IMG/VR virus record: IMGVR_UViG_2687453414_000003
Reading direction: 5' to 3' (one strand)
Source: an uncultured virus (IMG/VR IMGVR_UViG_2687453414_000003)
Lineage: Duplodnaviria > Heunggongvirae > Uroviricota > Caudoviricetes
DNA: 64,000 nucleotides
Of the stretch, positions 2,916 to 45,722 are shown in pieces. Every line of letters begins with the position of its first letter. Within the stretch, counting starts at the first letter, position 1. The notes under the pieces were generated by a model. It saw only the letters and a program-made list of their open reading frames with translations. It was not told the origin of the DNA and made no database searches. Both the position numbers and the translations under genes were made by a program.

Positions 2916-3127
2916 CTGCGGTAGTCGAAAGGGTCACGGCCGAGCCAGTGCTAGTGCCCAGGAGGCAGGCGGCGGAAATGCTCGGACTCGGACTCACCGA
3001 GTTTGACGAGCTGCGGCGAGCAGGACGCATCTTTGTACGCAAGTACGGACGCAAGGTGCTGGTTCCGATGGAAGAGATTAGGAAGTGCGCGGAAACGATT
3101 CCGTGGGATGAAGATAAGGATTCGTAA
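2912..3127 (+). CDS. xis: Excisionase / MerR-like HTH
   Basis: LVPRRQAAEMLGLG...GRI...KYGRKVLVP pattern. Confidence 0.75.
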   Translation: MTAVVERVTAEPVLVPRRQAAEMLGLGLTEFDELRRAGRIFVRKYGRKVLVPMEEIRKCAETIPWDEDKDS

Positions 3128-3128
3128 C

Positions 3129-3440
3129 ATGGGCTTTGCGAACATTGAAACCGAGTTGCGTTTAGCCGAGGCTCTTACCGCTATCAATGATATTCGGGAG
3201 CTTACGGGAATCGCTAACGAGCCCGTCGAACGCGGATACGTTGTTCATCGGGTCACTTCCGAACTTCAGGAATGGCTGCCGAGTGTCAAGTTTGACCAGC
3301 TTGCAGCAATCGCGGATGCCATTGTTGACAACCTAGCCGAGGTGAACCTTATCCCGGTTGGGCCGAATCTGGACGAACCTATCGGGTTCGAAATTGTTGA
3401 GAAGCTAGAGTTTTCGATTGTTCCCCTTAATGGGGGATAA
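3129..3440 (+). CDS. Hypothetical protein
   Basis: ORF starting 1 nt after the xis stop. Confidence 0.6.
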   Translation: MGFANIETELRLAEALTAINDIRELTGIANEPVERGYVVHRVTSELQEWLPSVKFDQLAAIADAIVDNLAEVNLIPVGPNLDEPIGFEIVEKLEFSIVPLNGG

Positions 3441-7045: not shown

Positions 7046-7390
7046 ATGAGTAAAAAGCTAACTAAGACACAAGGATTGGTGCAGACGGTACCTATGCCCA
7101 AAGACGTTGCATGGGCTACCAAGGTCACCGGCAGAAACCTTGGGGCAGTGACCTACATGCTGTCTTTGTCGTGCGAGAAGAAGTCCAAGCTTGGGCAGCT
7201 CACGGTGACGTTCAAAGAGGACGGCTCACTACGGCGAATCCGGTTCCGGGGCACGGGCGTTGTCGTCTATCCCGGCACCTATCTGGTGTACGTGCCGTCA
7301 ACCGGAAACGTTCATGTCGTACCGGCTAAGGACTACAAAGAGAACTTCGGGGAGGTAATAGATCGTGACCACGTTTTTGCAGGAGATTAG
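7046..7390 (+). CDS. Hypothetical protein
   Basis: ORF in operon. Confidence 0.55.
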   Translation: MSKKLTKTQGLVQTVPMPKDVAWATKVTGRNLGAVTYMLSLSCEKKSKLGQLTVTFKEDGSLRRIRFRGTGVVVYPGTYLVYVPSTGNVHVVPAKDYKENFGEVIDRDHVFAGD

Positions 7391-8798
7391 CCGCGAGACC
7401 AACCTGACCCGCACTGAGAATGGCGCGGTTACGAATGCGTCGAGTCTCAACGCGGTGGTTGATTTCTTCGCGGCTGCCGGGGCGATGCGGGACACCCCCG
7501 ACAAGGCTGCCGATCTTTTCGAGAAGGCGTATCGGGAAGACCCGCAGACTGCTATCCGCACCATGTTCTACCTGCGCGATGTGCGCGGAGGGCAGGGGGA
7601 GCGCGATGTCTTCCGGTCCTGCCTTAAGCGCCTGGCCGATCTGGGCTTTACTCCAATGGACAAGGTGCTTAAGCACATTCCGGAGTATGGCCGCTGGGAC
7701 GACCTGTTTTATCAGGGTTCGACGGTGACAGGTGGCATGGCCAAGATCATTGGCGACCAGCTCGTGAAGGACGCCGACGCGTACAACCGTGGCGAGTCAG
7801 TATCACTGCTGGCCAAGTGGCTGCCGTCCGATACGTCCAAGGGACGCAAGGATCTTGCGGTAAACCTGCGTAAGGCTATCGGCTTGGATCAGCGCAAGTA
7901 CCGCAAGGTGCTGTCTCGGCTGCGGGCTCACATCGGCCTGCTTGAGCAGGATATGTCCGCTAAGCGGTGGCGGGAGATTGACTGGGGCAAGTTGCCTTCG
8001 CGCGCTCACATGACGCACGTTAAGGCGTTCCATCGCCACACGCCCGCCGAGTATCAGGCTTACCTCGATTCGGTTGTTAAGGGCGAGGCCAAGGTAAACG
8101 CGGCGACCCTGTATCCGTATGAGCTGTACGACATGGTGAATGCCGGTCAGTCGCAGGCTGCGGATGCGTTGTGGGCAAACCTGCCTGACTACACGCGCGG
8201 CAACGATGGGATCGTTCTAGCGGACGTGTCGGGATCGATGAGTGGTCGGCCTATGTCGGTTTCGGTATCGCTGGCGTTGTATTTCGCGGACCGCAATCAG
8301 GGCGTTTACAAAGATCACTTCATGACCTTCTCGTCCACCCCCAAGATTGAGAAGGTCGAGGGCAAGACCCTGGCGGATCGAATGCGCGCGATTGAGAATT
8401 CGACCGGCTGGTATGGCTCAACAGACCTGCACGCGGCGTTCCGGGCCATCTTGGCAGCGGGGCAGCGCTCAGGCCAGGTGCCCAAGACTCTCTACGTGGT
8501 GTCGGATATGGAGTTCAACGCGGCGTTCGGGTTCTACCGCAACGACCGCACCGTTGACACCATCTTTGAGACGGCCAAGCGGGAGTTCGCAGCTGCGGGG
8601 CTCGTACTGCCTCACGTCGTGTTCTGGAACGTCAACGCCCGGAACAGTAACTACCCGGCACTAGCCCACGACGGCAATGTGACGCTGGTTTCTGGACTGT
8701 CGCCCACGGTGTTCGGAATGGCGGTAGAGGGTAAGTCTCCCGCTGAATTGGTGCGAGATGTCGTGAATGGACCGCGTTATCAGCCCATCGTAATTTGA
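7365..8798 (+). CDS. DUF2828-family protein with C-terminal VWA domain (Ro60/TROVE-like architecture)
   Basis: TENGA, RDVRGGQGER, YGRWDDL, AKWLPS, KLPS, TLYPYEL motifs; MIDAS DVSGS; SDMEF; VFWNV; LVSGLSP. Confidence 0.88.
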   Translation: MTTFLQEISRETNLTRTENGAVTNASSLNAVVDFFAAAGAMRDTPDKAADLFEKAYREDPQTAIRTMFYLRDVRGGQGERDVFRSCLKRLADLGFTPMDKVLKHIPEYGRWDDLFYQGSTVTGGMAKIIGDQLVKDADAYNRGESVSLLAKWLPSDTSKGRKDLAVNLRKAIGLDQRKYRKVLSRLRAHIGLLEQDMSAKRWREIDWGKLPSRAHMTHVKAFHRHTPAEYQAYLDSVVKGEAKVNAATLYPYELYDMVNAGQSQAADALWANLPDYTRGNDGIVLADVSGSMSGRPMSVSVSLALYFADRNQGVYKDHFMTFSSTPKIEKVEGKTLADRMRAIENSTGWYGSTDLHAAFRAILAAGQRSGQVPKTLYVVSDMEFNAAFGFYRNDRTVDTIFETAKREFAAAGLVLPHVVFWNVNARNSNYPALAHDGNVTLVSGLSPTVFGMAVEGKSPAELVRDVVNGPRYQPIVI

Positions 8799-8840
8799 TG
8801 GGTTGGTAGTGTTCCCCTAGTTGGGGTATGGTGAATTTAG

Positions 8841-9035
8841 TGGGCGCGAACAGCAATCACACTCAACTTTCATTTTCGAAAAAATAGAGAGCGCCCAGTT
8901 TCTGAACTTTGTGGACCCATACAGCAATATTTTACCTTGCATATAGGAAAGAAATCGGGTCCAGTCTTGCGGTCGAGGACACAAGCAGCAATCTAAAATC
9001 AACTGTTAAGTGGTAACTGTTTCAAACGGTGTCCT
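8841..9035 (+). ncRNA. Array of three CAGCAAT stem-loop units (8841-8897, 8912-8963, 8976-9035)
   Basis: Each unit is G-[7-bp stem]-NARCAGCAAT-AT-rich 28-36 nt-[complement]-GT; stems differ in sequence but pair perfectly. Confidence 0.75.
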
Positions 9036-9094
9036 GTCAAACCGCGAAAACTCACTGTTTTCATGCTCGTGAGTCCTAACAATATTTTCGGGTT

Positions 9095-9132
9095 AACCCG
9101 GCCAGCCTAGGGGGGTGCTGGCCGGGTTTTCT
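9095..9132 (+). terminator. Intrinsic terminator after the ncRNA array
   Basis: AACCCGGCCAGC/GCTGGCCGGGTT 12-bp stem followed by TTCT. Confidence 0.8.
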
Positions 9133-9161
9133 CGTATCTGCACACCATTTTAGGAGTACAC

Positions 9162-9512
9162 ATGTGGCGCATAGCTGCAATCACTGCCATCTGCGCAGCA
9201 TTGGGCATCTCTGCCTCTGCCTGCGCGACGAGCAATCAGGAATGGCACCGAGACTGCACGGTGCTGTCTAAAGACACCCTCTACGACACGTCGGGGTCCA
9301 ATGGCCACACCAGGACGACTCGTAAGAATCGGCTATCGACTAGTTGCGGTGCGTTCTCTGTTGACGACGCTTGGGAAGTAGGTTCATTCAATTCATGGGA
9401 TCTGTGGGCGCGACTTGAACAAGGCAAGGTCTATGACCTTAAGACCGGCGGATACCGCAATGGCTTCATGGGCATGTTTCCCGTGGTGCTCGAAATTAAG
9501 GGGCCTAAGTGA
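9162..9512 (+). CDS. Secreted/lipoprotein hypothetical
   Basis: AGGAG RBS; signal peptide ending ASAC. Confidence 0.7.
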   Translation: MWRIAAITAICAALGISASACATSNQEWHRDCTVLSKDTLYDTSGSNGHTRTTRKNRLSTSCGAFSVDDAWEVGSFNSWDLWARLEQGKVYDLKTGGYRNGFMGMFPVVLEIKGPK

Positions 9513-9694
9513 ACGGCACAATTCGCGTGTTCGACTACCAGGGAAATTCGGAAGCTTATTCCGCTGAATCGGCGCGGGTAGAGGCCGGTGTTTTGTATGT
9601 GGAAAACGGTCAGACGGTGACGATTGTGAATGCTGATGCGTGGTCTAAGGCAGTCGCAACTGGGGTAAATGATTTTAGAGGGGGTTACGTTTGA
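9509..9694 (+). CDS. Hypothetical protein
   Basis: GTGA-coupled ORF. Confidence 0.55.
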   Translation: MNGTIRVFDYQGNSEAYSAESARVEAGVLYVENGQTVTIVNADAWSKAVATGVNDFRGGYV

Positions 9695-9718
9695 TTATTA
9701 GGTTGACTGTGGGGGATT

Positions 9719-10558
9719 TTGACTGACCACAGCATTGTTAGGGACCGCTGGGGTAGGCCGTATATCACGCAGAATGGGGAGCCGCTGCGCTACAAGCCGG
9801 GCGGTAAGACCCCGATTAACGCGGAGGGCTATACGCGCATCTCGACGTTGGCCGGCACTCTTGACGACAAGGGCAATCTGTCTGACTGGCTAGCTGCTAG
9901 AGCGCTTATGGGCGTGGTGAAGTCAGAAGCTCTGTTCGCGCAGGCCGCACACCTGGTCTCCGCGCACAAAGATCCCTGGGCAGTACCCGAGGGCAAGAAG
10001 CCGCTAAAAGAGTTAGTAGCGAGTGCGCAGGCATTGGGCGGTTCGGAAGATGCGAGCGGGTTAGGTACGGCGTTCCATGGCCTCTGTGAGGTTCTAGACG
10101 AAGGCAACAAGCCGCAGTATGTGCCACGACAGCTTGAGCCTTGGATTGAAGCCCGCCAGGCGGCTATTGAAGAGTTCGACCCGGTTCTTATTGAGCCGTT
10201 CGTGGTTAATGACGAGTTGAAGAGTGCCGGTAACCCGGACCGATACTTGTTGCATAGGCCAACGGGCATTGTGTACGCAGCTGACGATAAGACGGGTTCT
10301 AGTGAGCCTGATTTTCCGCTCAAGGTCACGATTCAGGTTGCGATTGCGTCGCGGAGCGTCCTATATGACCAGAAGACCGGTAAGCGCACTCCTATTAAAT
10401 GTGATCAAAGCAAGGGCTTGCTGGTGCATACGCCTATTCGGGATGTGCGGCCCCGCTCCAATCTGTATTGGCTTGATCTAAATAAGGGCTGGGAGTACGC
10501 CAAGTTGGCGGTACAGGTGCGTGAGGCTCGGAAGCTGCCGAAGCTGACAAGGAAATAG
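9719..10558 (+). CDS. PD-(D/E)XK / Cas4-like recombination exonuclease
   Basis: RDRWGRP N-terminus, GTAFH, E..V, GNPDR, DDKTG, Q motifs; near the ERF gene. Confidence 0.8.
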   Translation: MTDHSIVRDRWGRPYITQNGEPLRYKPGGKTPINAEGYTRISTLAGTLDDKGNLSDWLAARALMGVVKSEALFAQAAHLVSAHKDPWAVPEGKKPLKELVASAQALGGSEDASGLGTAFHGLCEVLDEGNKPQYVPRQLEPWIEARQAAIEEFDPVLIEPFVVNDELKSAGNPDRYLLHRPTGIVYAADDKTGSSEPDFPLKVTIQVAIASRSVLYDQKTGKRTPIKCDQSKGLLVHTPIRDVRPRSNLYWLDLNKGWEYAKLAVQVREARKLPKLTRK

Positions 10559-15413: not shown

Positions 15414-15756
15414 CCGAGACCTAATCTCGGCGCTTATCTACAAGCATACGGCTGTGGTGTTTAACGCACGGACGGAAGTCGCGGCTGGAACAAAATACAG
15501 CCCTAGCGAGACCTCTTGCACGGCTGCGGCTGATTCAATTTTGGAGTTGGTATATGGCCTTAAGTCGTCGGACGGTCCGAGCTTGGAAGAACGAGTATCC
15601 CGATTAGAGAAATGGGCTAAGGGCGAAATTGGAGCACTGCCGTGATTTGCCTGCGATGCGAAAGATACGCCTACCGCGTAAGCAACGGTATCTGTGATCA
15701 ATGCGAGGACGAGATTTATTGCGGTTCACTCGCGGAATGTGAAGAGGAATACGAAC

Positions 15757-16617
15757 GTGACAATCAGTTTTAAAGCTTACGTGCAGGGTCGGGGAACTTT
15801 TAGTAACGTCGCTGAACCTTTCCGGTTTCCGGGCGGTGAATGGCATTTAAGGTATATGCGCCAGTTCGCCGAGAGTGACATTACGTGGATTGCCGATGTT
15901 CGGGGCGCTGACGCTAACGACCTTGTTAAGGCGGGTCTGCTTGCACAACATGTATCGTATCTCGATCAGCCGCACAATTTCGTGTTGATGTTGCCCTATT
16001 TCCCGGCTGCTCGCGCAGATCGCGGCACCCCGCTAGGGGCGGCAACCTACGCCAAGCTGATTAATTCGATGTACGCCGATCAGGTGATTAGCGTCGATCT
16101 GCATTCGCGTGCCGCGTGGGATTGGACGAATGATCTTACGGAAGTTCCGGTTACAGCGCTGTTCATCGACCGGGCGTTGATGGGTCGTGAATACGACTCG
16201 GTGATTGCACCCGACAGGGGTGCCCTAAGCCGCGCGCAACAGGTCGCCACGCATCTGGGAATTGAGGTAGTGCGGGTCGAGAAGTACCGCGATTTCGCAA
16301 CCGGCCGCATTACCGGCATGGAACTAATCGGCAATGTTCCGAAGCCTGGGCGGTTCCTCGTGGTGGATGACATCTGTGATGGCGGCGGAACCTTCATAGC
16401 CCTAGCGGAACTGTTGAACCTGCCAAAGGATCAGCTCGACCTGTGGGTTACGCACGGCATCTTCTCCGGCAAGGCCGGTCAGCTGCATGACCACTACGGG
16501 CGGATCTACACCACGGACTCCCACCCTGGCGCTTACTCGGGTGCGGTTAGGCCGTTCTCGATTGTTCCGACTTTCCCAATCATGTTCAACGCTATGAGAA
16601 ATGGACTATCCAAGTGA
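15757..16617 (+). CDS. PRPP-synthetase-like protein (probable NARP1 Adps, ADPR-PP synthetase)
   Basis: FPGGE, PYFPAARADR, DLHS, APDRGA, K.RD, VVDDICDGGGTF, THG; GAGGA RBS before GTG 15757. Confidence 0.9.
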   Translation: MTISFKAYVQGRGTFSNVAEPFRFPGGEWHLRYMRQFAESDITWIADVRGADANDLVKAGLLAQHVSYLDQPHNFVLMLPYFPAARADRGTPLGAATYAKLINSMYADQVISVDLHSRAAWDWTNDLTEVPVTALFIDRALMGREYDSVIAPDRGALSRAQQVATHLGIEVVRVEKYRDFATGRITGMELIGNVPKPGRFLVVDDICDGGGTFIALAELLNLPKDQLDLWVTHGIFSGKAGQLHDHYGRIYTTDSHPGAYSGAVRPFSIVPTFPIMFNAMRNGLSK

Positions 16618-18104
16618 GTGTTGACTACGCGCCCGTGGCTCCGCTATTCCACACGGACGCATACAAACTGGACCACCGCAGGCAATATGCGCTAAGCGGA
16701 AACGTCACGCGGGTCTACTCGAACTACACCAACCGCAAGAGCCGAATCCCTGGTGTTGACAAGGTGGTTCATTTCGGGTTGCAGGCTTACATCCAGCGGT
16801 ACCTGATGGATGAGTTCGCGCCGTTCTTTGCGGCACCCTCCCATAAGGTCACAGCTGCATACAAGGCGCGGCTGGCTCAAGTGTTAGGCCGCGAGGCCGC
16901 AGACGCGATCGGTGTAGGGCACATTGCCAGCCTGCACGATCTGGGGTACTTGCCGTTGCGGTTCTGCGCGGTCCCCGAGGGCACCCTAGTCCCCATCGGT
17001 GTTCCGTCATTCACGGTCGAGAGCACTCGCGGTTTCGGGTGGTTGACGAACTTTGTGGAGACAGGGCTATCCGCCGGCCTTTGGCAAGCGTCCACGTCAG
17101 CGACCATCGCGCACGAATACCGCAAAGTCTTGGAGAGTGCGGCCCTGCGGACTGGCGGTGACCCTACCGATATCGACTGGCAGTGTCATGACTTCTCGTA
17201 CCGGGGTATGTCCTCGCATGAGTCGGCGGCGGTGTCCGGTGCGGCGCACCTCCTGTCATTCACGGGTACCGACTCCCTGGTGTCGCTCGATTGGATTGAG
17301 CGCTACTACGGCGGGCCATACGAGGCGTCCAGCGTGCCCGCTACCGAACATTCGGTGATGTGCACGGGCATTGAGACCCTGGGGGAGCAAGAGACGTTCT
17401 CGCGCCTCCTGGACCTGTATCCGACTGGAACGGTCGCAGTCGTAGCAGACACGTTCGATCTGTGGCGGGTGCTCACTGAGTACCTACCGGCACTAAGGGA
17501 CAAGGTTTGTGCCCGCGACGGCAAGCTAGTCATTCGGCCCGACTCGGGAGACCCCGAGACCATCCTGTGCGGCGACGAGACTGCAACTGTGGGTTCGCCG
17601 CAGTGGATGGGCGTACTTGGCCTGCTTTACGAGCATTTCGGTGGACGCAAGAACATCGCCGGGTTCATCGAGCTGAACCCTAAAGTCGGTGCGATCTATG
17701 GTGATTCGATCACATTGGATCGGGCTAGGTCCATCACGGCGCGCATGGAGAAACTGGGCTACGCGTCTACGAATGTTGTGTTTGGTGTGGGTTCCTTTAC
17801 GTACCAGTACAACACGCGGGACACGTTTGGTTCTGCGATGAAGGCGACATGGGTCGAGGTTGACGGCAGGGGCGTGAACCTGCTTAAAGACCCGGTTACC
17901 GATGACGGTACTAAGAAGTCTGCAACAGGCCGCCTGGCGGTCCTAAGAAAGTCGAAAGCATTTGGCGGGCAGATGTTTTTGGTTGAGAAGGCGGTTCTTT
18001 TCGCCGAGTTGAACAGTCTGTTGCGGCCGGTGTGGGAAGACGGGAAATTCATTAAGCGCCAGACATTTTCGGATGTACGCAAGATGCTTAAGGAGCAAGA
18101 GTGA
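16614..18104 (+). CDS. NAMPT-like protein (probable NARP1 Namat)
   Basis: TDAYKLDH, HDFSYRG, ATEHSVM, IRPDSGDP, YGDSI, TRDTFG.AMK, KDPVTDDGTKKS. Confidence 0.93.
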   Translation: MSVDYAPVAPLFHTDAYKLDHRRQYALSGNVTRVYSNYTNRKSRIPGVDKVVHFGLQAYIQRYLMDEFAPFFAAPSHKVTAAYKARLAQVLGREAADAIGVGHIASLHDLGYLPLRFCAVPEGTLVPIGVPSFTVESTRGFGWLTNFVETGLSAGLWQASTSATIAHEYRKVLESAALRTGGDPTDIDWQCHDFSYRGMSSHESAAVSGAAHLLSFTGTDSLVSLDWIERYYGGPYEASSVPATEHSVMCTGIETLGEQETFSRLLDLYPTGTVAVVADTFDLWRVLTEYLPALRDKVCARDGKLVIRPDSGDPETILCGDETATVGSPQWMGVLGLLYEHFGGRKNIAGFIELNPKVGAIYGDSITLDRARSITARMEKLGYASTNVVFGVGSFTYQYNTRDTFGSAMKATWVEVDGRGVNLLKDPVTDDGTKKSATGRLAVLRKSKAFGGQMFLVEKAVLFAELNSLLRPVWEDGKFIKRQTFSDVRKMLKEQE

Positions 18105-18436
18105 GTGAAGTAGTGACGGATCAGTTGGAGTTCCCCAAGCTCCCGAGATTTCACAAGTGGAGCGTGCGATACACCCCGACGCTAAATACGCCTCGGTTGC
18201 ACGTAAAGATCAAGTTTATAGGTCTTTTCGTGTGCGAGGAGTACTCCTCATGGTTTGACGGTGAAGCGACGCCGGAACGGTTACGCCTTAAGGCCGTTCG
18301 TATTGCCAAGCTAGTACATGCCAATTTTGAGCGAGACCGTCGGCGCGACCGCAGTTTGGGCGCTCTGCGCGCTGCCGCTGCCGAGGTTGAGCGGGATCTA
18401 AACAGTGGTGATCCACGGAAAGTTGCTGATAAGTGA
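18101..18436 (+). CDS. Hypothetical protein
   Basis: GTGA-coupled ORF. Confidence 0.55.
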   Translation: MSEVVTDQLEFPKLPRFHKWSVRYTPTLNTPRLHVKIKFIGLFVCEEYSSWFDGEATPERLRLKAVRIAKLVHANFERDRRRDRSLGALRAAAAEVERDLNSGDPRKVADK

Positions 18437-19383
18437 CATTGAAACTAACCGCTATGCGCGGGTACCCCGGCTCCGGAAAGTCCACCAAGGCTAAAGAGAT
18501 TGCCGCTGCAACCGGCGCTGTCCGGGTCTGTCGCGATGACCTACGGAAGATGCTGCACGACAACCACTACACCGGCAAGACGGAGTGTGAAGAGCAGGTG
18601 ACGACGGCTGAGCGTGCGCAAGTTCACGCGCTACTGAAGGCCGGCACGTCAGTGGTGGTAGATGCTACGCATTTGGAGCCGCGTTGGTTGCGTAAGTGGC
18701 AGAAGATGGCCGCGCAGTACGGAGCCGAGTTCGAGGTAATCGACGTTGACACCGGCCAGCTCAAGTGTGCCGCTAACGACCTGTTGCGTAAGGCTCAGGG
18801 TGGGCGTCATGTGGGCTCCGATGTGATTGAGCGGATGGCTAAGCGGTACCCGATTAAGAACTGGCCCAAGGTTACTCAACTTGAGACGTTCAAGCCTGAG
18901 CCGGTCGAATGGATCGAGGGCCTGCCGGAAGCAATCATTGTGGATATTGACGGAACAGTCGCCCACATGACGGGAAGATCACCGTACGACTACACGCAGG
19001 TTCACACCGACGTGGTTGACGAACCTGTGCGCTGGTTGGTCAATCTGATCTACGAGGAACGGTTCGCATGCGAGCTTGGGCCTGATCCCTATTACCCACG
19101 GATTCTGTTCGTGTCAGGCCGGGATGATGAGTGTCGCGATGAAACTGCTAAGTGGCTGGACAACAACGGTATTCCGTTCGACGAGCTGCACATGCGGCCC
19201 ACCGGAGCTAAGGACGCCAACGGAAACAAGCTGCCCGACTACCGGGTGAAGTACGACCTGTTCAACCAGCATATTCGCGGCAAGTACAACGTTCGGTTTG
19301 TGCTGGATGATCGCGACCAGGTTGTGAATCTCTGGCGGGCATTGGGTTTGAAGTGCTTGCAGGTCCAGCCGGGGGACTTCTGA
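18433..19383 (+). CDS. pnk: Polynucleotide 5'-kinase/3'-phosphatase (T4 PseT-like)
   Basis: GYPGSGKST P-loop, RDDLR, DIDGT HAD motif, SGR, DDR. Confidence 0.95.
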   Translation: MTLKLTAMRGYPGSGKSTKAKEIAAATGAVRVCRDDLRKMLHDNHYTGKTECEEQVTTAERAQVHALLKAGTSVVVDATHLEPRWLRKWQKMAAQYGAEFEVIDVDTGQLKCAANDLLRKAQGGRHVGSDVIERMAKRYPIKNWPKVTQLETFKPEPVEWIEGLPEAIIVDIDGTVAHMTGRSPYDYTQVHTDVVDEPVRWLVNLIYEERFACELGPDPYYPRILFVSGRDDECRDETAKWLDNNGIPFDELHMRPTGAKDANGNKLPDYRVKYDLFNQHIRGKYNVRFVLDDRDQVVNLWRALGLKCLQVQPGDF

Positions 19384-23668: not shown

Positions 23669-24949
23669 ATGAAGTTTGAACAACCTAAGAATGTGAATTA
23701 TGCGGCAACCATCGTCCGGGTACCAGAGCCTCTTAGGGTTCTGGGCCTGGACAACCTGGTGGCAATCCCAATGTTCGGGTACCAGGTGCTCACGCAAAGG
23801 GAGGGCATCAAGGCCGGAGACCTGCGCGTATTGTTCGTCGCGGAAACCCAGCTGTCCGAAGAGTACGCCCGCCTAAACAACCTGCACAGGGAGGCGACGC
23901 TTAACGATGATGCCGGCGAGACCGGCTACTTGGAGGCTAACCGCCGCGTTAGGGCAATCCGGCTGCGTAAGAACAACTCTAGTGCGCTGCTCATGCCGCT
24001 TGAGTCGCTGGCCTACACGGGCATTGACGTTTCTCAGCTTGAGGTGGGGGACACGTTCGACACGCTGAACGGTCATGAGATTTGCCGTAAGTATGAGGTT
24101 CCGGGCAAGCGGGCACAGTCCGCGTCGGGGCAGCCGAAGATCCGTCAGCGGGTCGATCAGAAGCTATTCCCCATGCATTTGGATACCGAGCATCTGTTTA
24201 GGAACTGGCATGTGTTCCGGGAGCCTAAACGGGTTGTGGTGACTCAGAAGTTGCACGGCACGAGCATCCGTATTGGCCGGGTTCCTGCCGCCCGCGATAA
24301 GGGTTGGATTGAGCGGGTTGTGGTTAACAAGTGGCTGCGAATCGCTACCTCGGATACTGCGTATGAGGATGTGGCGGGCTCCCGGAGGGTGATTAAGGGC
24401 CGGTCTGAGAACAATCACTACTACGACTCGGACATCTGGGCGGCCTGCGCTAAGTGGCTTGAGGGCCTGATCCCGGAGAACTTCATCGTGTATGGCGAGC
24501 TGATCGGCTGGGAGAGTGAAGAGAAGCCGATCCAGAAGGGCTACACCTACAACTTGCGTCCTGGTGACTGCGCTCTATACGTGTACCGGGTAGCTACGGT
24601 GAATGGGCAGGGCGTTATCGCTGACCTGTCTTGGGAGGGCGTTGAGCAGTTCTGCGCGGCGATCGGTGTTAAAACGGTTCCGGTCATCCATAAGTTCAAC
24701 GAGTACGTTTCGGCCGAGGACGAGCCGAGGATTACTGAGGCTTACGTAGACGCTTATCTTGATAAGAATCTGGCGGATAAGTTCAGCGGCGCGCTACCAC
24801 TTTCCAATCCGCTTTCGGTGGATGAGGGCATTTGTGTACGCGTGGAGGGCCAGGTGCCGCGCATCTTTAAGGCTAAGTCTCCAATCTTCTTTGAGCATGA
24901 AACCAAGATGCTCGACAAGGGCGAAGAGGACTTGGAGGCTGCCGCATAG
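23669..24949 (+). CDS. RNA ligase (Rnl2/DRB0094-like, N-terminal OB fold)
   Basis: KLHGTS (motif I), YGELIG, EGICVR, FKAKS. Confidence 0.88.
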   Translation: MKFEQPKNVNYAATIVRVPEPLRVLGLDNLVAIPMFGYQVLTQREGIKAGDLRVLFVAETQLSEEYARLNNLHREATLNDDAGETGYLEANRRVRAIRLRKNNSSALLMPLESLAYTGIDVSQLEVGDTFDTLNGHEICRKYEVPGKRAQSASGQPKIRQRVDQKLFPMHLDTEHLFRNWHVFREPKRVVVTQKLHGTSIRIGRVPAARDKGWIERVVVNKWLRIATSDTAYEDVAGSRRVIKGRSENNHYYDSDIWAACAKWLEGLIPENFIVYGELIGWESEEKPIQKGYTYNLRPGDCALYVYRVATVNGQGVIADLSWEGVEQFCAAIGVKTVPVIHKFNEYVSAEDEPRITEAYVDAYLDKNLADKFSGALPLSNPLSVDEGICVRVEGQVPRIFKAKSPIFFEHETKMLDKGEEDLEAAA

Positions 24950-33741: not shown

Positions 33742-33814
33742 CGGCATGTAGCTCAGTTGGTAGAGCACCGGAGTGAAGCCCCGGAGCGCACAGGTTCGAT
33801 TCCTGTCATGTCGG
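33742..33814 (+). tRNA. tRNA-Phe(GAA)
   Basis: CGGCATG/CATGTCG; loop GTGAAGC; TTCGATT. Confidence 0.85.
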
Positions 33815-33901
33815 CGTGAGCAAGGTACGGGTTCTGCGGCTGCGGCCCCACGATCTGTCTGGCCCCGGTTGATGGCTACGGCGCGCCGGGGTTGCTCGTA
33901 T

Positions 33902-34208: not shown

Positions 34209-34281
34209 ACCTATGTGGTCTAATTTGGCATGACACCGGAGTCTGGTTCCGGTAATTGAGGTTCGAATCCTTGCGTAGGTG
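34209..34281 (+). tRNA. tRNA-Gln(CTG)
   Basis: ACCTATG/CGTAGGT; CCGGA-GTCTGGT-TCCGG. Confidence 0.85.
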
Positions 34282-34290
34282 CTTTTATAT

Positions 34291-35806: not shown

Positions 35807-35879
35807 TCCTTCGTAGCTCAATTGGTAGAGCTGCGCCCTGTTAAGGCGTCGGTTGTTGGTTCGAATCCAGCCGGAGGAG
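35807..35879 (+). tRNA. tRNA-Asn(GTT)
   Basis: TCCTTCG/CGGAGGA; GCGCC-CTGTTAA-GGCGT. Confidence 0.93.
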
Positions 35880-35881
35880 CA

Positions 35882-43941: not shown

Positions 43942-44124
43942 TGGCTCGGATGTTGGGGCGTCACGTTCGTGAGCCTTTGTTTTGTTTCTACGGCTGGAAA
44001 TGCGTGTGTGAGCGTGGCCGGGTGAAGGCCCATCGCCGCAGTAGTGGCCGGAATGTTGATTTGTCACGTCGTATTCGTCGGCGCAGGGAGGCGCGCGAAT
44101 GGTTGCGTGAGGCTTGGGGGGATT

Positions 44125-44874
44125 ATGACGGCGGTATTAGAGCCGGAGGCCGAGACTCGCCATGAGGGTCTAATCGGTGTTCAGCGTCCGCGTATTGAGC
44201 ATTTCCCGGCTTATTTTACGACGCTCGGGGATGACGCTATCGACTTGTGTAATCAGTTTGGCTTGGATTTGCTTCCGTGGCAAGAGCTGCTGGTTAGGCA
44301 GTCGCTAGGTCAAAAGGGGAGTTCTACCGGGGACTCTGAGATTGACAAGTTTACGAGCGGGATTACTTGGCAATGGTGCGCGTCTACCTGTTGCCTTATT
44401 GCCCCTCGCCAAAATGGCAAGAATGTGTGCGTTTATGCGCGGCAGCTGGCGGGTTTGTATCTGCTGGGTGAGCGCATTATGCATTCGGCGCACGAGTTCG
44501 ATACCGCTAAGGATGCTCACCGTGAGTTGACGGCGATTATCGCTGGCGATGAGGACTTGGAGGATGAGTGCAAGCTGCCTCACAAGATCGGGGCGGCTGA
44601 GCTTTCGGTAGTGCATAAGGAGTCGGGGGGCTTCATTCACTACGTTGCGCGCGGCAAGAACGCTAAGCGTGGTCGTACTCGCGTGGATCTGATGATTCTT
44701 GACGAGGCGTTTGCGCTGGATAACGACATGATGGGTTCGTTGTCGCCGCTACAGCAGGCGTCTAAGAATCCGCAGACTTGGTTGACCACCTCTGCCGGCA
44801 CCGATGACTCGGATGTCTTGAAACGTATGCGCGAGTACGGCATGACGTTGGCCGGATTGCGGGACGCGGCATGA
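44125..44874 (+). CDS. Terminase large subunit, ATPase part
   Basis: LLPWQ, PRQNGK, HSAH, LDEA, TSAG. Confidence 0.9.
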   Translation: MTAVLEPEAETRHEGLIGVQRPRIEHFPAYFTTLGDDAIDLCNQFGLDLLPWQELLVRQSLGQKGSSTGDSEIDKFTSGITWQWCASTCCLIAPRQNGKNVCVYARQLAGLYLLGERIMHSAHEFDTAKDAHRELTAIIAGDEDLEDECKLPHKIGAAELSVVHKESGGFIHYVARGKNAKRGRTRVDLMILDEAFALDNDMMGSLSPLQQASKNPQTWLTTSAGTDDSDVLKRMREYGMTLAGLRDAA

Positions 44875-45722
44875 CGGCAGTCGAGTATGACGATCCGCCG
44901 TTTCTGTTCGCGGAGTGGTCATGCGCTGAGGGTTCGGACCCTGCCGATTTCGAGAACTGGAAGATCGCTAATCCGTCGCTAGGCGTTAAGGGCATCGCTC
45001 CGGTGTCGGCTTTGCGTGAGGACTTCGAGGTCAAGATGGACCTCCAGCAGTTCGCGCGTGAGCACTTGGGTATGTGGGACGACCCGCGCATGAATTCGGT
45101 TATCCCGTTTGAGGCTTGGGTGGCGTGTCAGCTGGATGACGTTCCCGATCCGGATGAGCCGGGTTCTATGCGGCCTCCGGTGGTGGATCTGGGGATGGTT
45201 GTTGCGTCGGTTGATGTGGCACCTGATCAGGCTTGGGCGTCTATTGCTATTGCGGGTAAGCGTCCTGATGGCCGGTCGCATATCGAGTTGGTTTGGGCGG
45301 CGGGCGGCACGGCGTGGGTGTTGCCGATGATGCAGCGACTTATCTCGTCTTCTAAGCCTCCGGTGGCGGTGGCTGTTCAGGCGGGTGCTGCTGCGGGTGC
45401 GTTGGGTCCGGAGCTTGAGCAGATCGGTTTGAAGGTCCGCTATTTCGGTACTCAGGATATTGCGCAGTCTACGGCGCAGTTTTACACAGACATTATTGAT
45501 CAGAAGCTAACCCATTTGGACGATGACGCTCTATTTGAGTGTTTGGCGGGTGCGGCTAAATATCCGATTGGTAAGCCGGAGCTTGAGCAGTGGGGCTGGC
45601 TCCGTAAGAGCACGTCTACCGATATTACGGGGATTGTTGCCGCTTGCTATGCAAATCGGCTTTTGACGTTGGAGGACGTTGAGGTGACGCTTAACGCTCC
45701 AAAGAAACATAGGTTGCTTTGA
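44871..45722 (+). CDS. Terminase large subunit, nuclease part
   Basis: EWS, W..ANPSLG, FAREHLG.W, VDVAPD, DIT. Confidence 0.88.
   Translation: MTAVEYDDPPFLFAEWSCAEGSDPADFENWKIANPSLGVKGIAPVSALREDFEVKMDLQQFAREHLGMWDDPRMNSVIPFEAWVACQLDDVPDPDEPGSMRPPVVDLGMVVASVDVAPDQAWASIAIAGKRPDGRSHIELVWAAGGTAWVLPMMQRLISSSKPPVAVAVQAGAAAGALGPELEQIGLKVRYFGTQDIAQSTAQFYTDIIDQKLTHLDDDALFECLAGAAKYPIGKPELEQWGWLRKSTSTDITGIVAACYANRLLTLEDVEVTLNAPKKHRLL

Follow-up and report, generated by a model that had tools for sequence, protein, structure and literature searches.

The DNA analysed here, referred to throughout as the window, is the whole 64,000-nt stretch of IMG/VR record IMGVR_UViG_2687453414_000003, an uncultured virus of the Caudoviricetes. 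The window is a prophage: it starts with an integrase gene and carries repressors, genes for replication, 17 tRNA genes (30-36 kb) and the genes for head and tail. The subject of this analysis is an array of three short units that sits directly behind the open reading frame (ORF) at 7365-8798 (+); unit 1 begins 43 nt past the stop codon of this ORF and lies on the same strand. An earlier reading, made from the letters of the sequence without database searches (here called the sequence-only reading), had interpreted the units as minimal tRNA mimics. We consider it likely that the array encodes three small non-coding RNAs of the Y-RNA kind, carried on a partner protein of the Ro60 fold and each built from a constant handle and a tRNA-derived cargo.

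The three units have a common frame (Table 1). In each of them a 7-bp closing stem (TGGGCGC/GCGCCCA in unit 1, TGGACCC/GGGTCCA in unit 2, AGGACAC/GTGTCCT in unit 3) is followed by a terminal G (8898, 8964 and 9036, respectively), and the motif CAGCAAT is found shortly after the 5' strand of the stem (8851-8857, 8922-8928 and 8986-8992). The insert of unit 1 contains the hairpin TTTC-ATTTTC-GAAA (8868-8881), with a 6-nt loop, and that of unit 2 the hairpin CCT-TGCATAT-AGG (8935-8947). Unit 3 contains a weak anticodon-arm-like hairpin (8998-9014) with the loop CTGTTAA (9003-9009), and a second hairpin (9016-9030) that stands where a T arm would follow. Tandem Repeats Finder reported no array at the locus; the units have only the handle in common. 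The closing stems form in RNAfold predictions, in which the unit 3 hairpins of the sequence-only reading are not chosen; the unit 3 insert folded alone (8990-9029) has a z of -0.42. Position and stem sequence mark the three units as orthologues of units 1-3 in cluster-L-like arrays, and the closing stem of unit 3 shows two compensatory changes relative to Mycobacterium phage Aegeus. In the Aegeus locus (L001), gene 61 (3060-3203), a coding sequence for a 'hypothetical protein', is annotated over array units 1 and 2, and is probably a false gene call over non-coding RNA.

Table 1. Features of the array locus and related features of the window. R1 is the covariance model built on the handle; bits are R1 scores.
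Feature	Position	Strand	Remarks
Unit 1	8841..8898	+	58 nt; stem 8841-8847 with 8891-8897; 45.1 bits
Unit 2	8912..8964	+	53 nt; stem 8912-8918 with 8957-8963; 45.6 bits
Unit 3	8976..9036	+	61 nt; stem 8976-8982 with 9029-9035; 41.8 bits
Ro-like RNA-binding protein gene	7365..8798	+	477 aa; DUF2828 and DUF7788/vWA; presumed protein partner of the array
Candidate -10 hexamer TATGGT (TANNNT type)	8827..8832	+	About 8 nt before unit 1; putative, from sequence
Extra hairpin ACTCAC-(13 nt)-GTGAGT	9050..9074	+	Between unit 3 and the terminator-like hairpin; present in RNAfold of the region
Terminator-like hairpin CCCGGCCAGC...GCTGGCCGGG, then TTTTCTCG	9097..9133	+	RNAfold of 8799-9135; conserved in relatives
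Polynucleotide kinase	18433..19380	+	PHROG 505, 1.1e-106; RNA-repair context
RNA ligase	23669..24946	+	PHROG 968, 1.9e-116; RNA-repair context
tRNA-Asn(GTT)	35807..35880	+	ARAGORN; anticodon arm GCGCC-CTGTTAA-GGCGT

The product of ORF 7365-8798 matches Pfam families DUF2828 (2.2e-33) and DUF7788 (1.1e-31), with a weak match to vWA, and belongs to PHROG 850, 'RNA-binding protein' (1.3e-150). In related mycobacteriophages the DUF2828 gene is labelled 'Ro-like RNA binding protein'. These are the only Pfam matches of the window protein, with none to TROVE (PF05731), and a phmmer search against PDB sequences gave nothing at E <= 10. An AlphaFold2 model built on 42 relatives (predicted local distance difference test, pLDDT, 89.1; predicted template modelling score, pTM, 0.88) shows a helical-repeat ring plus a vWA domain, as in solved Ro60. 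When this model was compared with the PDB by Foldseek, the best 12 among the matches listed (ranks 1-13) were all Ro60 structures, aligned over the full length with E-values of 8e-8 to 2e-4 and template modelling (TM) scores of 0.45-0.63. The structures matched (1YVR, 1YVP, 2I91, 2NVO, 9KOP, 9L5Y and 9NEN) comprise frog and human Ro60, Deinococcus Rsr and the Ro60 of Thermus phage phiLo, and two of the best fold matches, 9KOP and 9L5Y, are phiLo structures. As there is no TROVE or PDB sequence match and the fold matches are to Ro60, the window protein is, judging from its predicted model, a Ro60-fold protein belonging to a separate sequence family. The DUF2828 family was found in 710 phage records, and its carriers include Felixounavirus, Listeria P100-like, Staphylococcus, Enterococcus, Campylobacter, Vibrio, Aeromonas and Synechococcus phages.

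Comparison of the array with Aegeus and with IMG/VR relatives gave the frame of the handle: a 7-bp stem, 1-3 bases, CAGCAA(Y), A-rich linkers round a variable insert, the 3' strand of the stem, and an invariant G. The outermost stem pairs covary, and in AT-rich phages the stem takes the form TAGAC/AAGAC/GAGAC ... GTCTA/GTCTT. A covariance model, R1, was built on the handle with the three units of the window in its seed; its E-values are rough, as calibration was shortened. Within the window, searched on both strands, R1 matches only the three units, which are themselves seed members. In the wider search there were 173 matches at E <= 0.1 in 99 loci, lying near the start or end of the DUF2828 gene, and at E <= 0.05 there were 137, spread over 72 of 91 sources; every match is on the strand of the gene. 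Across 98 non-redundant R1 matches, conservation is 95-100% for CAGCAA and 100% for the terminal G. A simpler finder requiring the motif and a stem of at least 7 bp gave 291 units on the strand of the gene; the other strand yielded 64 and shuffled sequences 40, which puts its background at approximately 40-64 false units in 291; the loop statistics given below use its unit sets. R1 matches are found beside the gene in six of eight named phages (P100, Staphylococcus BE22, Felixounavirus Si3, Campylobacter CPX, Enterococcus VRE9_4 and Synechococcus B3), and the single-stranded motif of the handle is kept invariant across hosts from Mycobacterium to Campylobacter. No family in Rfam 15 covers the handle; the handle RNAs are missing from Rfam and from phage annotations.

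A second search started from the RNA. IMG/VR was scanned with the pattern TAGACNNTAACAGCAAT, giving 112 matching stretches, and 80 of these were examined. The 7-bp stem is present in 46 of the 80, and for 19 of the 46 a DUF2828 gene lies on the same strand no more than 3 kb away. For the remaining 27 stemmed matches, 25 records were searched and 14 were found to hold the gene elsewhere, including all four records that are at least 90% complete; the 11 records lacking a DUF2828 gene are 2-86% complete. The DUF2828 family search was negative in all 14 control genomes, and a control pattern with one extra N gave 54 mostly coding matches, of which none (0/54) has a DUF2828 neighbour. These counts show that the link between handle and gene holds at the level of the genome, though units may lie far from the gene. 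One locus matched by the control pattern (L130, 3001-3110) resembles a true unit, in which a T arm and an acceptor-like hairpin come after the handle, and has the stem spacing of an 8-bp type.

In relatives the variable insert is often a tRNA-like domain. The middle unit of cluster-L-like mycobacteriophages is approximately 120 nt long, and the Rfam model of YrlA scores middle units of relatives at 47.2, 39.8, 28.3 and 24.9 bits, all under the 69-bit threshold; the alignment spans the T arm, capped acceptor stem and D arm only, and does not cover the handle. Such tRNA-like units, 96-131 nt in length, run in the order handle, anticodon arm, variable loop (often NGGTC), T arm (of GGTTCGANTCC type), capped acceptor-like stem, TA, D arm and handle, and the acceptor-like stem has 6-7 bp and is closed by a loop such as TTCG (e.g. 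L058:1104-1214). By sequence they read as a circularly permuted tRNA, opened between the D arm and the anticodon arm and sealed at its acceptor end. Circularly permuted tRNA genes and permuted tmRNA are known, and the units of relatives resemble them in having tRNA parts in permuted order. Unlike in permuted tRNAs, the break here falls between the D and anticodon arms and the acceptor is sealed by a loop such as UUCG, so that no mature tRNA can be released; the Rfam model tmRNA_permuted gave a weak match only. A T-arm test was positive for 26 of 71 long units of relatives. In 28 non-redundant units there is a 5-bp T arm with a TTYRANN loop, and 10 of these 28 also have, exactly in register with tRNA, an anticodon arm (3 or more contiguous pairs being required) whose loop has the form Y-U-NNN-R, compared with 0.38 ± 0.61 in shuffles (maximum 4 in 1000). 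A few units are not permuted. The handle unit at L041:3066-3181 encloses a non-permuted tRNA-Gln(TTG), complete according to ARAGORN, at 3091-3163. Handle units of this locus also abut ordinary tRNA genes, as in the run tRNA-Trp 427-498, unit 499-568 and tRNA-Pro 573-646.

In a set of 89 non-redundant short units, a hairpin of at least 4 bp with a 7-nt loop is found in 45 (25.5 ± 3.9 in shuffles), a Y-U-NNN-R loop in 13 (3.3 ± 1.7), and a Y-U-NNN-R loop with at least 5 bp in 10 (1.1 ± 1.0); none of 500 shuffles reaches any of the observed values, and many units share ancestors, so the enrichment is partly a matter of common descent. In minimum-energy folds, 7 nt is the commonest loop size (23/81). 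Examples of anticodon-type hairpins are TTTCA-CTGTTAA-TGAAA, TTTCA-CTTCTAA-TGAAA, TCAGA-CCTCTAA-TCTGA and CATTA-CTGCTAA-TGATG, and the loop CTGTTAA itself occurs in 5 of 141 units where 0.61 would be expected. The sequence-only reading had taken a lack of anticodon-loop enrichment among homologues as a point against it, and the short units do show the enrichment; on this sequence evidence the idea of tRNA mimicry is supported for the family. Two narrower ideas were tried and rejected. The first was suggested by the best hairpins: if the loops mimicked only tRNAs for ANN codons (U36-A37-A38, the t6A class), T would be expected as the third base, and the pooled U33/R37 loops have T in 14, A in 14, C in 8 and G in 8. 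The other idea was that CTGTTAA recurs as the complement of TAACAG in the handle; RNAfold pairs the handle motif with CUGUU in unit 3 and in L028, and in the family such units number 3 of 129, compared with 1.19 ± 1.11 in shuffles.

Within the window the cargo is reduced and partly degenerate, and here the tRNA mimicry proposed by the sequence-only reading stands for the family, whose variable middles are tRNA-derived, better than for the three units themselves. The tRNA-like domain (T arm, D arm and capped acceptor-like stem) is absent from all three units, and YrlA (RF02553) has no match in window 8000-10000 at E <= 10. Unit 2 is orthologous, in position and stem sequence, to the tRNA-like middle unit of cluster-L-like arrays (compared with L016, L022 and L028). 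Its hairpin (TTGCATA) stands in the position of the anticodon arm, and the body made up of T arm, acceptor and D arm is gone. The orthologue of the unit 1 hairpin in Aegeus is TTTCA-CTTCTAA-TGAAA, and orthologues of the units in relatives, such as this hairpin and TTTCA-CTGTTAA-TGAAA, fit an anticodon arm.

All of the strings on which the sequence-only reading was built are present, namely ATCAA-CTGTTAA-GTGGT (8998-9014), ACTGT-TTCAA-ACGGT (9016-9030), CCT-TGCATAT-AGG (8935-8947) and TTTCATT (8868-8874). It had also rightly observed that the unit 3 loop CTGTTAA is identical to the anticodon loop of the tRNA-Asn(GTT) of the prophage, and that all three units close with 7 bp and then a G. In the anticodon arm that it proposed for unit 3 the loop fits; the flanking strands ATCAA/GTGGT form only four of five pairs, one of them a wobble, and leave an A.G mismatch beside the loop. 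The anticodon loops that it proposed for units 1 and 2 do not fit, the unit 1 loop having 6 nt and unit 2 having a G at the position of tRNA U33. Nor can 9016-9030 well be a T arm: the loop has 5 nt, the outer two pairs use G9029 and T9030 of the closing stem, and TTCAA is replaced by TTAAA in Aegeus and absent in L007. The proposed equivalence of the closing stem and its G with an acceptor stem and discriminator fails as well, since ACAGCAAY and not a D arm comes next, and the acceptor-like stem of tRNA-like relatives is internal and capped. Discriminator bases of tRNAs vary, whereas the terminal G is invariant in 98 of 98 hits. By analogy, the closing stem is better compared with the stem through which Y RNAs bind protein, although its motif is not the same.

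The reading that we favour, handle RNAs on a Ro-like partner, may be set out as follows. The RNAs would be made from the 3' region of the DUF2828 and vWA gene, or from a promoter of their own just upstream, and would be processed into separate RNAs of two modules. The constant module is the handle (the 7-bp stem with a conserved G-C pair near its base, ACAGCAAY, the A-rich linkers and the invariant G), and is most likely the docking site for the Ro-like ring, like the conserved stem in Y RNAs. The second module would be a variable cargo displayed on the handle, apparently taken from tRNA across the family: often a whole circularly permuted tRNA-like body, sometimes an anticodon-arm-like hairpin alone. 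In this lineage all three cargoes would be short, partly degenerate versions, unit 3 keeping CUGUUAA, unit 2 being the stump of a tRNA-like unit and unit 1 a 6-nt version of the anticodon-like loop of its relatives. By analogy with Y RNAs, the RNAs might act as a gate on the Ro-like protein, or as its tether to proteins that recognise the shape of tRNA, and so have an effect on tRNA-binding proteins. The setting would be the tRNA-centred tool kit of the phage, with its 17 tRNAs, polynucleotide kinase and RNA ligase.

A number of observations weigh against this interpretation. The argument that the protein binds the RNAs is one from neighbourhood only, and the handle is unlike known Ro60-binding motifs, the YrlA alignment covering just the T, acceptor and D core. 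Records G003 and G004 (loci L183 and L186), which are 79% and 86% complete, have a stemmed unit and no DUF2828 match; either the gene is in the missing part or another partner exists. Conversely, Aeromonas phiAS5 and Vibrio K491 carry the gene and have no R1 match within 2 kb. The pair statistics on alignment A3, by which an eighth stem pair is not real, include pair counts that are circular because the rows were picked for having the stem. Anticodon-like loops are a minority of the short units (13/89), and a recurrent loop class, UGCAU, which is that of unit 2 in the window, is unlike an anticodon loop. A comparison of 7 near-identical prophages found one copy of the unit 3 loop as CTGTTTA and one 7-nt deletion, so the CTGTTAA hairpin is not strictly kept, and by sequence the exact tRNA-Asn loop appears to be under no strict constraint in this lineage. 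As for the match to the tRNA-Asn loop, a shuffled array of matched composition holds one of the 17 tRNA anticodon loops with P = 0.21. The window on its own proves nothing, and significance comes from the relatives only.

The same 7 prophages bear on the question of whether the cargo matters at all. Their handles and the whole of unit 2 are unchanged, and the changes fall in the unit 1 loop and the first hairpin of unit 3. This pattern would suit RNAs that act through the handle only, binding or gating the Ro-like protein in the way that Y RNAs block the Ro60 cavity, with inner hairpins that are decaying tRNA-like leftovers. The absence of any handle change beside changes and a deletion in the unit 1 and 3 loops, the loss from unit 2 of the whole T, acceptor and D body of its cluster-L-like relatives, the weak folds of the inserts (as in unit 3) and the low share of canonical loops among short units are all consistent with it. 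We nevertheless hold this explanation to be unlikely, because the unit 2 insert is invariant in the 7 relatives, shuffles yield about half as many hairpins with 7-nt loops (25.5 ± 3.9 compared with 45), and CTGTTAA, CTTCTAA and the TTTCA/TGAAA stem recur between distant phages; these three features suggest selection on the cargo.

The sequence-only reading taken whole, in which the closing stem is an acceptor, the inner hairpins are tRNA arms and the units are free decoys that absorb or block host anticodon nucleases of the VapC or PrrC type, is quite unlikely. It draws on genuine features, since the family is enriched in hairpins resembling anticodon arms and in whole tRNA-like bodies, the unit 3 loop is that of tRNA-Asn, and the cargo varies fast between relatives on fixed handles, as expected of an arms race. 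The prophage has in addition 17 tRNAs, polynucleotide kinase and RNA ligase, and phage tRNAs have been proposed to counter tRNA-cutting defences (PMC10264068, PMC11555353). What decides against it is that the closing stem is the constant handle of the family, bearing ACAGCAAY, with the acceptor-like stem internal and capped in relatives. Moreover, the T-like hairpin is unconserved and competes with the closing stem for the same bases, units 1 and 2 have loops that violate the 7-nt or the U33 rule, and a free decoy would need neither a conserved handle nor a Ro-like partner. It is highly improbable that the hairpins are cis-acting parts of the mRNA (3'-end stabilisers, processing sites or attenuators) and not separate protein-bound RNAs, since, although the units lie between stop codon and terminator, in many relatives the units precede the gene, are found among tRNA genes or are over 3 kb away from the gene, the single-stranded motif is invariant in phages of hosts from Mycobacterium to Campylobacter, and units carry tRNA-like bodies.

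The nearest known counterparts of the handle RNAs are YrlA and other bacterial Y RNAs (Chen et al. 2014, PMC4201824; RF02553). As described there, these too are small RNAs encoded beside a Ro60-fold gene on the same strand, with a modular structure of a terminal stem bearing a conserved motif and a variable module, and several RNAs may be present per locus; the variable module of the handle family, like that of YrlA, mimics tRNA (T arm, D arm and loop-capped acceptor stem). Y RNAs are reported to gate Ro60 and to tether it to PNPase, and bacterial YrlA has a tRNA-like domain whose role is described as open (PMC4201824; PMC12135203). The differences lie in the partner, which here is DUF2828 and not Pfam TROVE, and in the motif, the stem with ACAGCAAY and terminal G replacing the GGUCCGA or GNCGAAN0-1G given for Y RNAs. 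The window units, at 53-61 nt, are also smaller than the 80-130 nt reported for Y RNAs, which have a large internal loop, and many relatives of the window units keep a full anticodon arm in tRNA register, unlike YrlA as described. Table S2 of Chen et al. lists Y RNAs in 22 phages, namely cluster C1-type mycobacteriophages, Bacillus phage G and CcrColossus (PMC4201824). The phages of this table have Ro proteins of TROVE type, and none of them carries a gene of the window's DUF2828 family. The tandem YrlAs of CcrColossus were considered as possible members of the handle family and rejected: the protein is a Pfam TROVE protein with no BLASTP similarity to the window protein, and R1 gave no match.

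A phage Ro60-fold protein with adjacent Y-like RNAs has been described in Thermus phage phiLo, whose Ro60 is accompanied by Yrl1 and Yrl2 (PMC12135203). In contrast to the window units, the phiLo RNAs were picked by a CGAA motif, lie upstream of the gene, and have no tRNA-derived cargo in the description given in that paper; the phiLo protein, unlike that of the window, is a Ro60 homologue recognisable by sequence. The phage tRNAs proposed to act in counter-defence (PMC10264068, PMC11555353) share with the handle units the anticodon arms, the location in tRNA clusters, the company of RNA-repair genes and the variable anticodon loops. As those sources present them, they are working tRNAs with open acceptor ends, whereas the units have a putative protein handle and no free acceptor end and are not chargeable. 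No paper that connects DUF2828 proteins with small RNAs turned up in a literature search, whose scope took in neither subscription journals nor supplements on bioRxiv.

A further, tentative possibility is that the Ro-like ring and the RNAs form a phage 'tRNA display' particle, in which the ring would hold handle RNAs that have been diversified to intercept host proteins that attack or inspect the anticodon loops of tRNAs. Each RNA would present a different anticodon arm or a sealed, permuted tRNA body, and the targets could be defence nucleases, toxins of toxin-antitoxin systems, or modification enzymes. Many tailed phages would be carriers of this so far unannotated particle, among them mycobacteriophages and Felix O1-like, Listeria P100-like, staphylococcal and Campylobacter phages. 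If this were true, such phages would protect translation by protein-anchored tRNA baits besides spare tRNAs and RNA-repair enzymes.

Both animals and bacteria are known to have Ro60 and Y RNAs. The locus described here points to a second, sequence-distinct Ro-like branch (DUF2828) with an RNA handle of its own. It also offers, in well-studied laboratory phages, a natural deletion series on the handle, with a complete permuted tRNA body at one end and an anticodon-arm hairpin alone at the other, which allows a direct test of which tRNA feature matters and which host proteins bind.

The DUF2828 gene is often inside or beside phage tRNA clusters. In 21 of 60 IMG/VR loci, tRNA genes lie within 1.5 kb of the gene, all on the same strand; the placement is also seen in CPX, VRE9_4, Si3, B3 and P100, and in Si3 the handle units are interleaved with tRNA genes. 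The occurrence of the gene in tRNA clusters near RNA-repair genes may tie it to the ways in which phages cope with tRNA-targeting defences. In the deposited record of Listeria phage P100, tRNA-Pro and tRNA-Met (L110 339-413 and 1306-1379) are placed opposite the strand of gp165, while ARAGORN places them on the same strand. A tmRNA lies near the DUF2828 gene in two uncultured phages, at L025 1464-1895 (-) (Rfam tmRNA, 72 bits) and at L068 1014-1307 (an ARAGORN call of permuted tmRNA). For mycobacteriophage LeBron, the Ro-like protein, RNA ligase and kinase are all reported to be toxic on overexpression (PMC13148394).

The sequences flanking the array were also compared with relatives. A TANNNT hexamer is found at the equivalent place before unit 1 in Aegeus and in cluster-L-like loci; a consensus promoter scan detected no promoter at the array. 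The extra hairpin at 9050..9074 is deleted in the close relative L013, absent in Aegeus and unmatched by R1, and it is not a member of the handle family. The terminator-like hairpin at 9097..9133 would close the transcription unit of gene plus array. It was not listed by a simple terminator scan, which we attribute to its 10-nt loop exceeding the 3-8 nt accepted by that scan.

Some minor observations were made elsewhere in the window. The early region that holds the polynucleotide kinase and RNA ligase genes also has an NAD-salvage pair at 15694-18101, in which a nicotinamide phosphoribosyltransferase gene comes immediately after a gene resembling ribose-phosphate pyrophosphokinase. Two of the 17 tRNAs, tRNA-Phe(GAA) at 33742-33815 and tRNA-Gln(CTG) at 34209-34282, have unusual anticodon loops starting with G (GTGAAGC and GTCTGGT); most anticodon loops of the other 15 start with C or T, then T. 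The large terminase subunit appears to be encoded as two adjacent ORFs, 44044-44871 and 44871-45719, which match the first and the second half, respectively, of one PHROG family.

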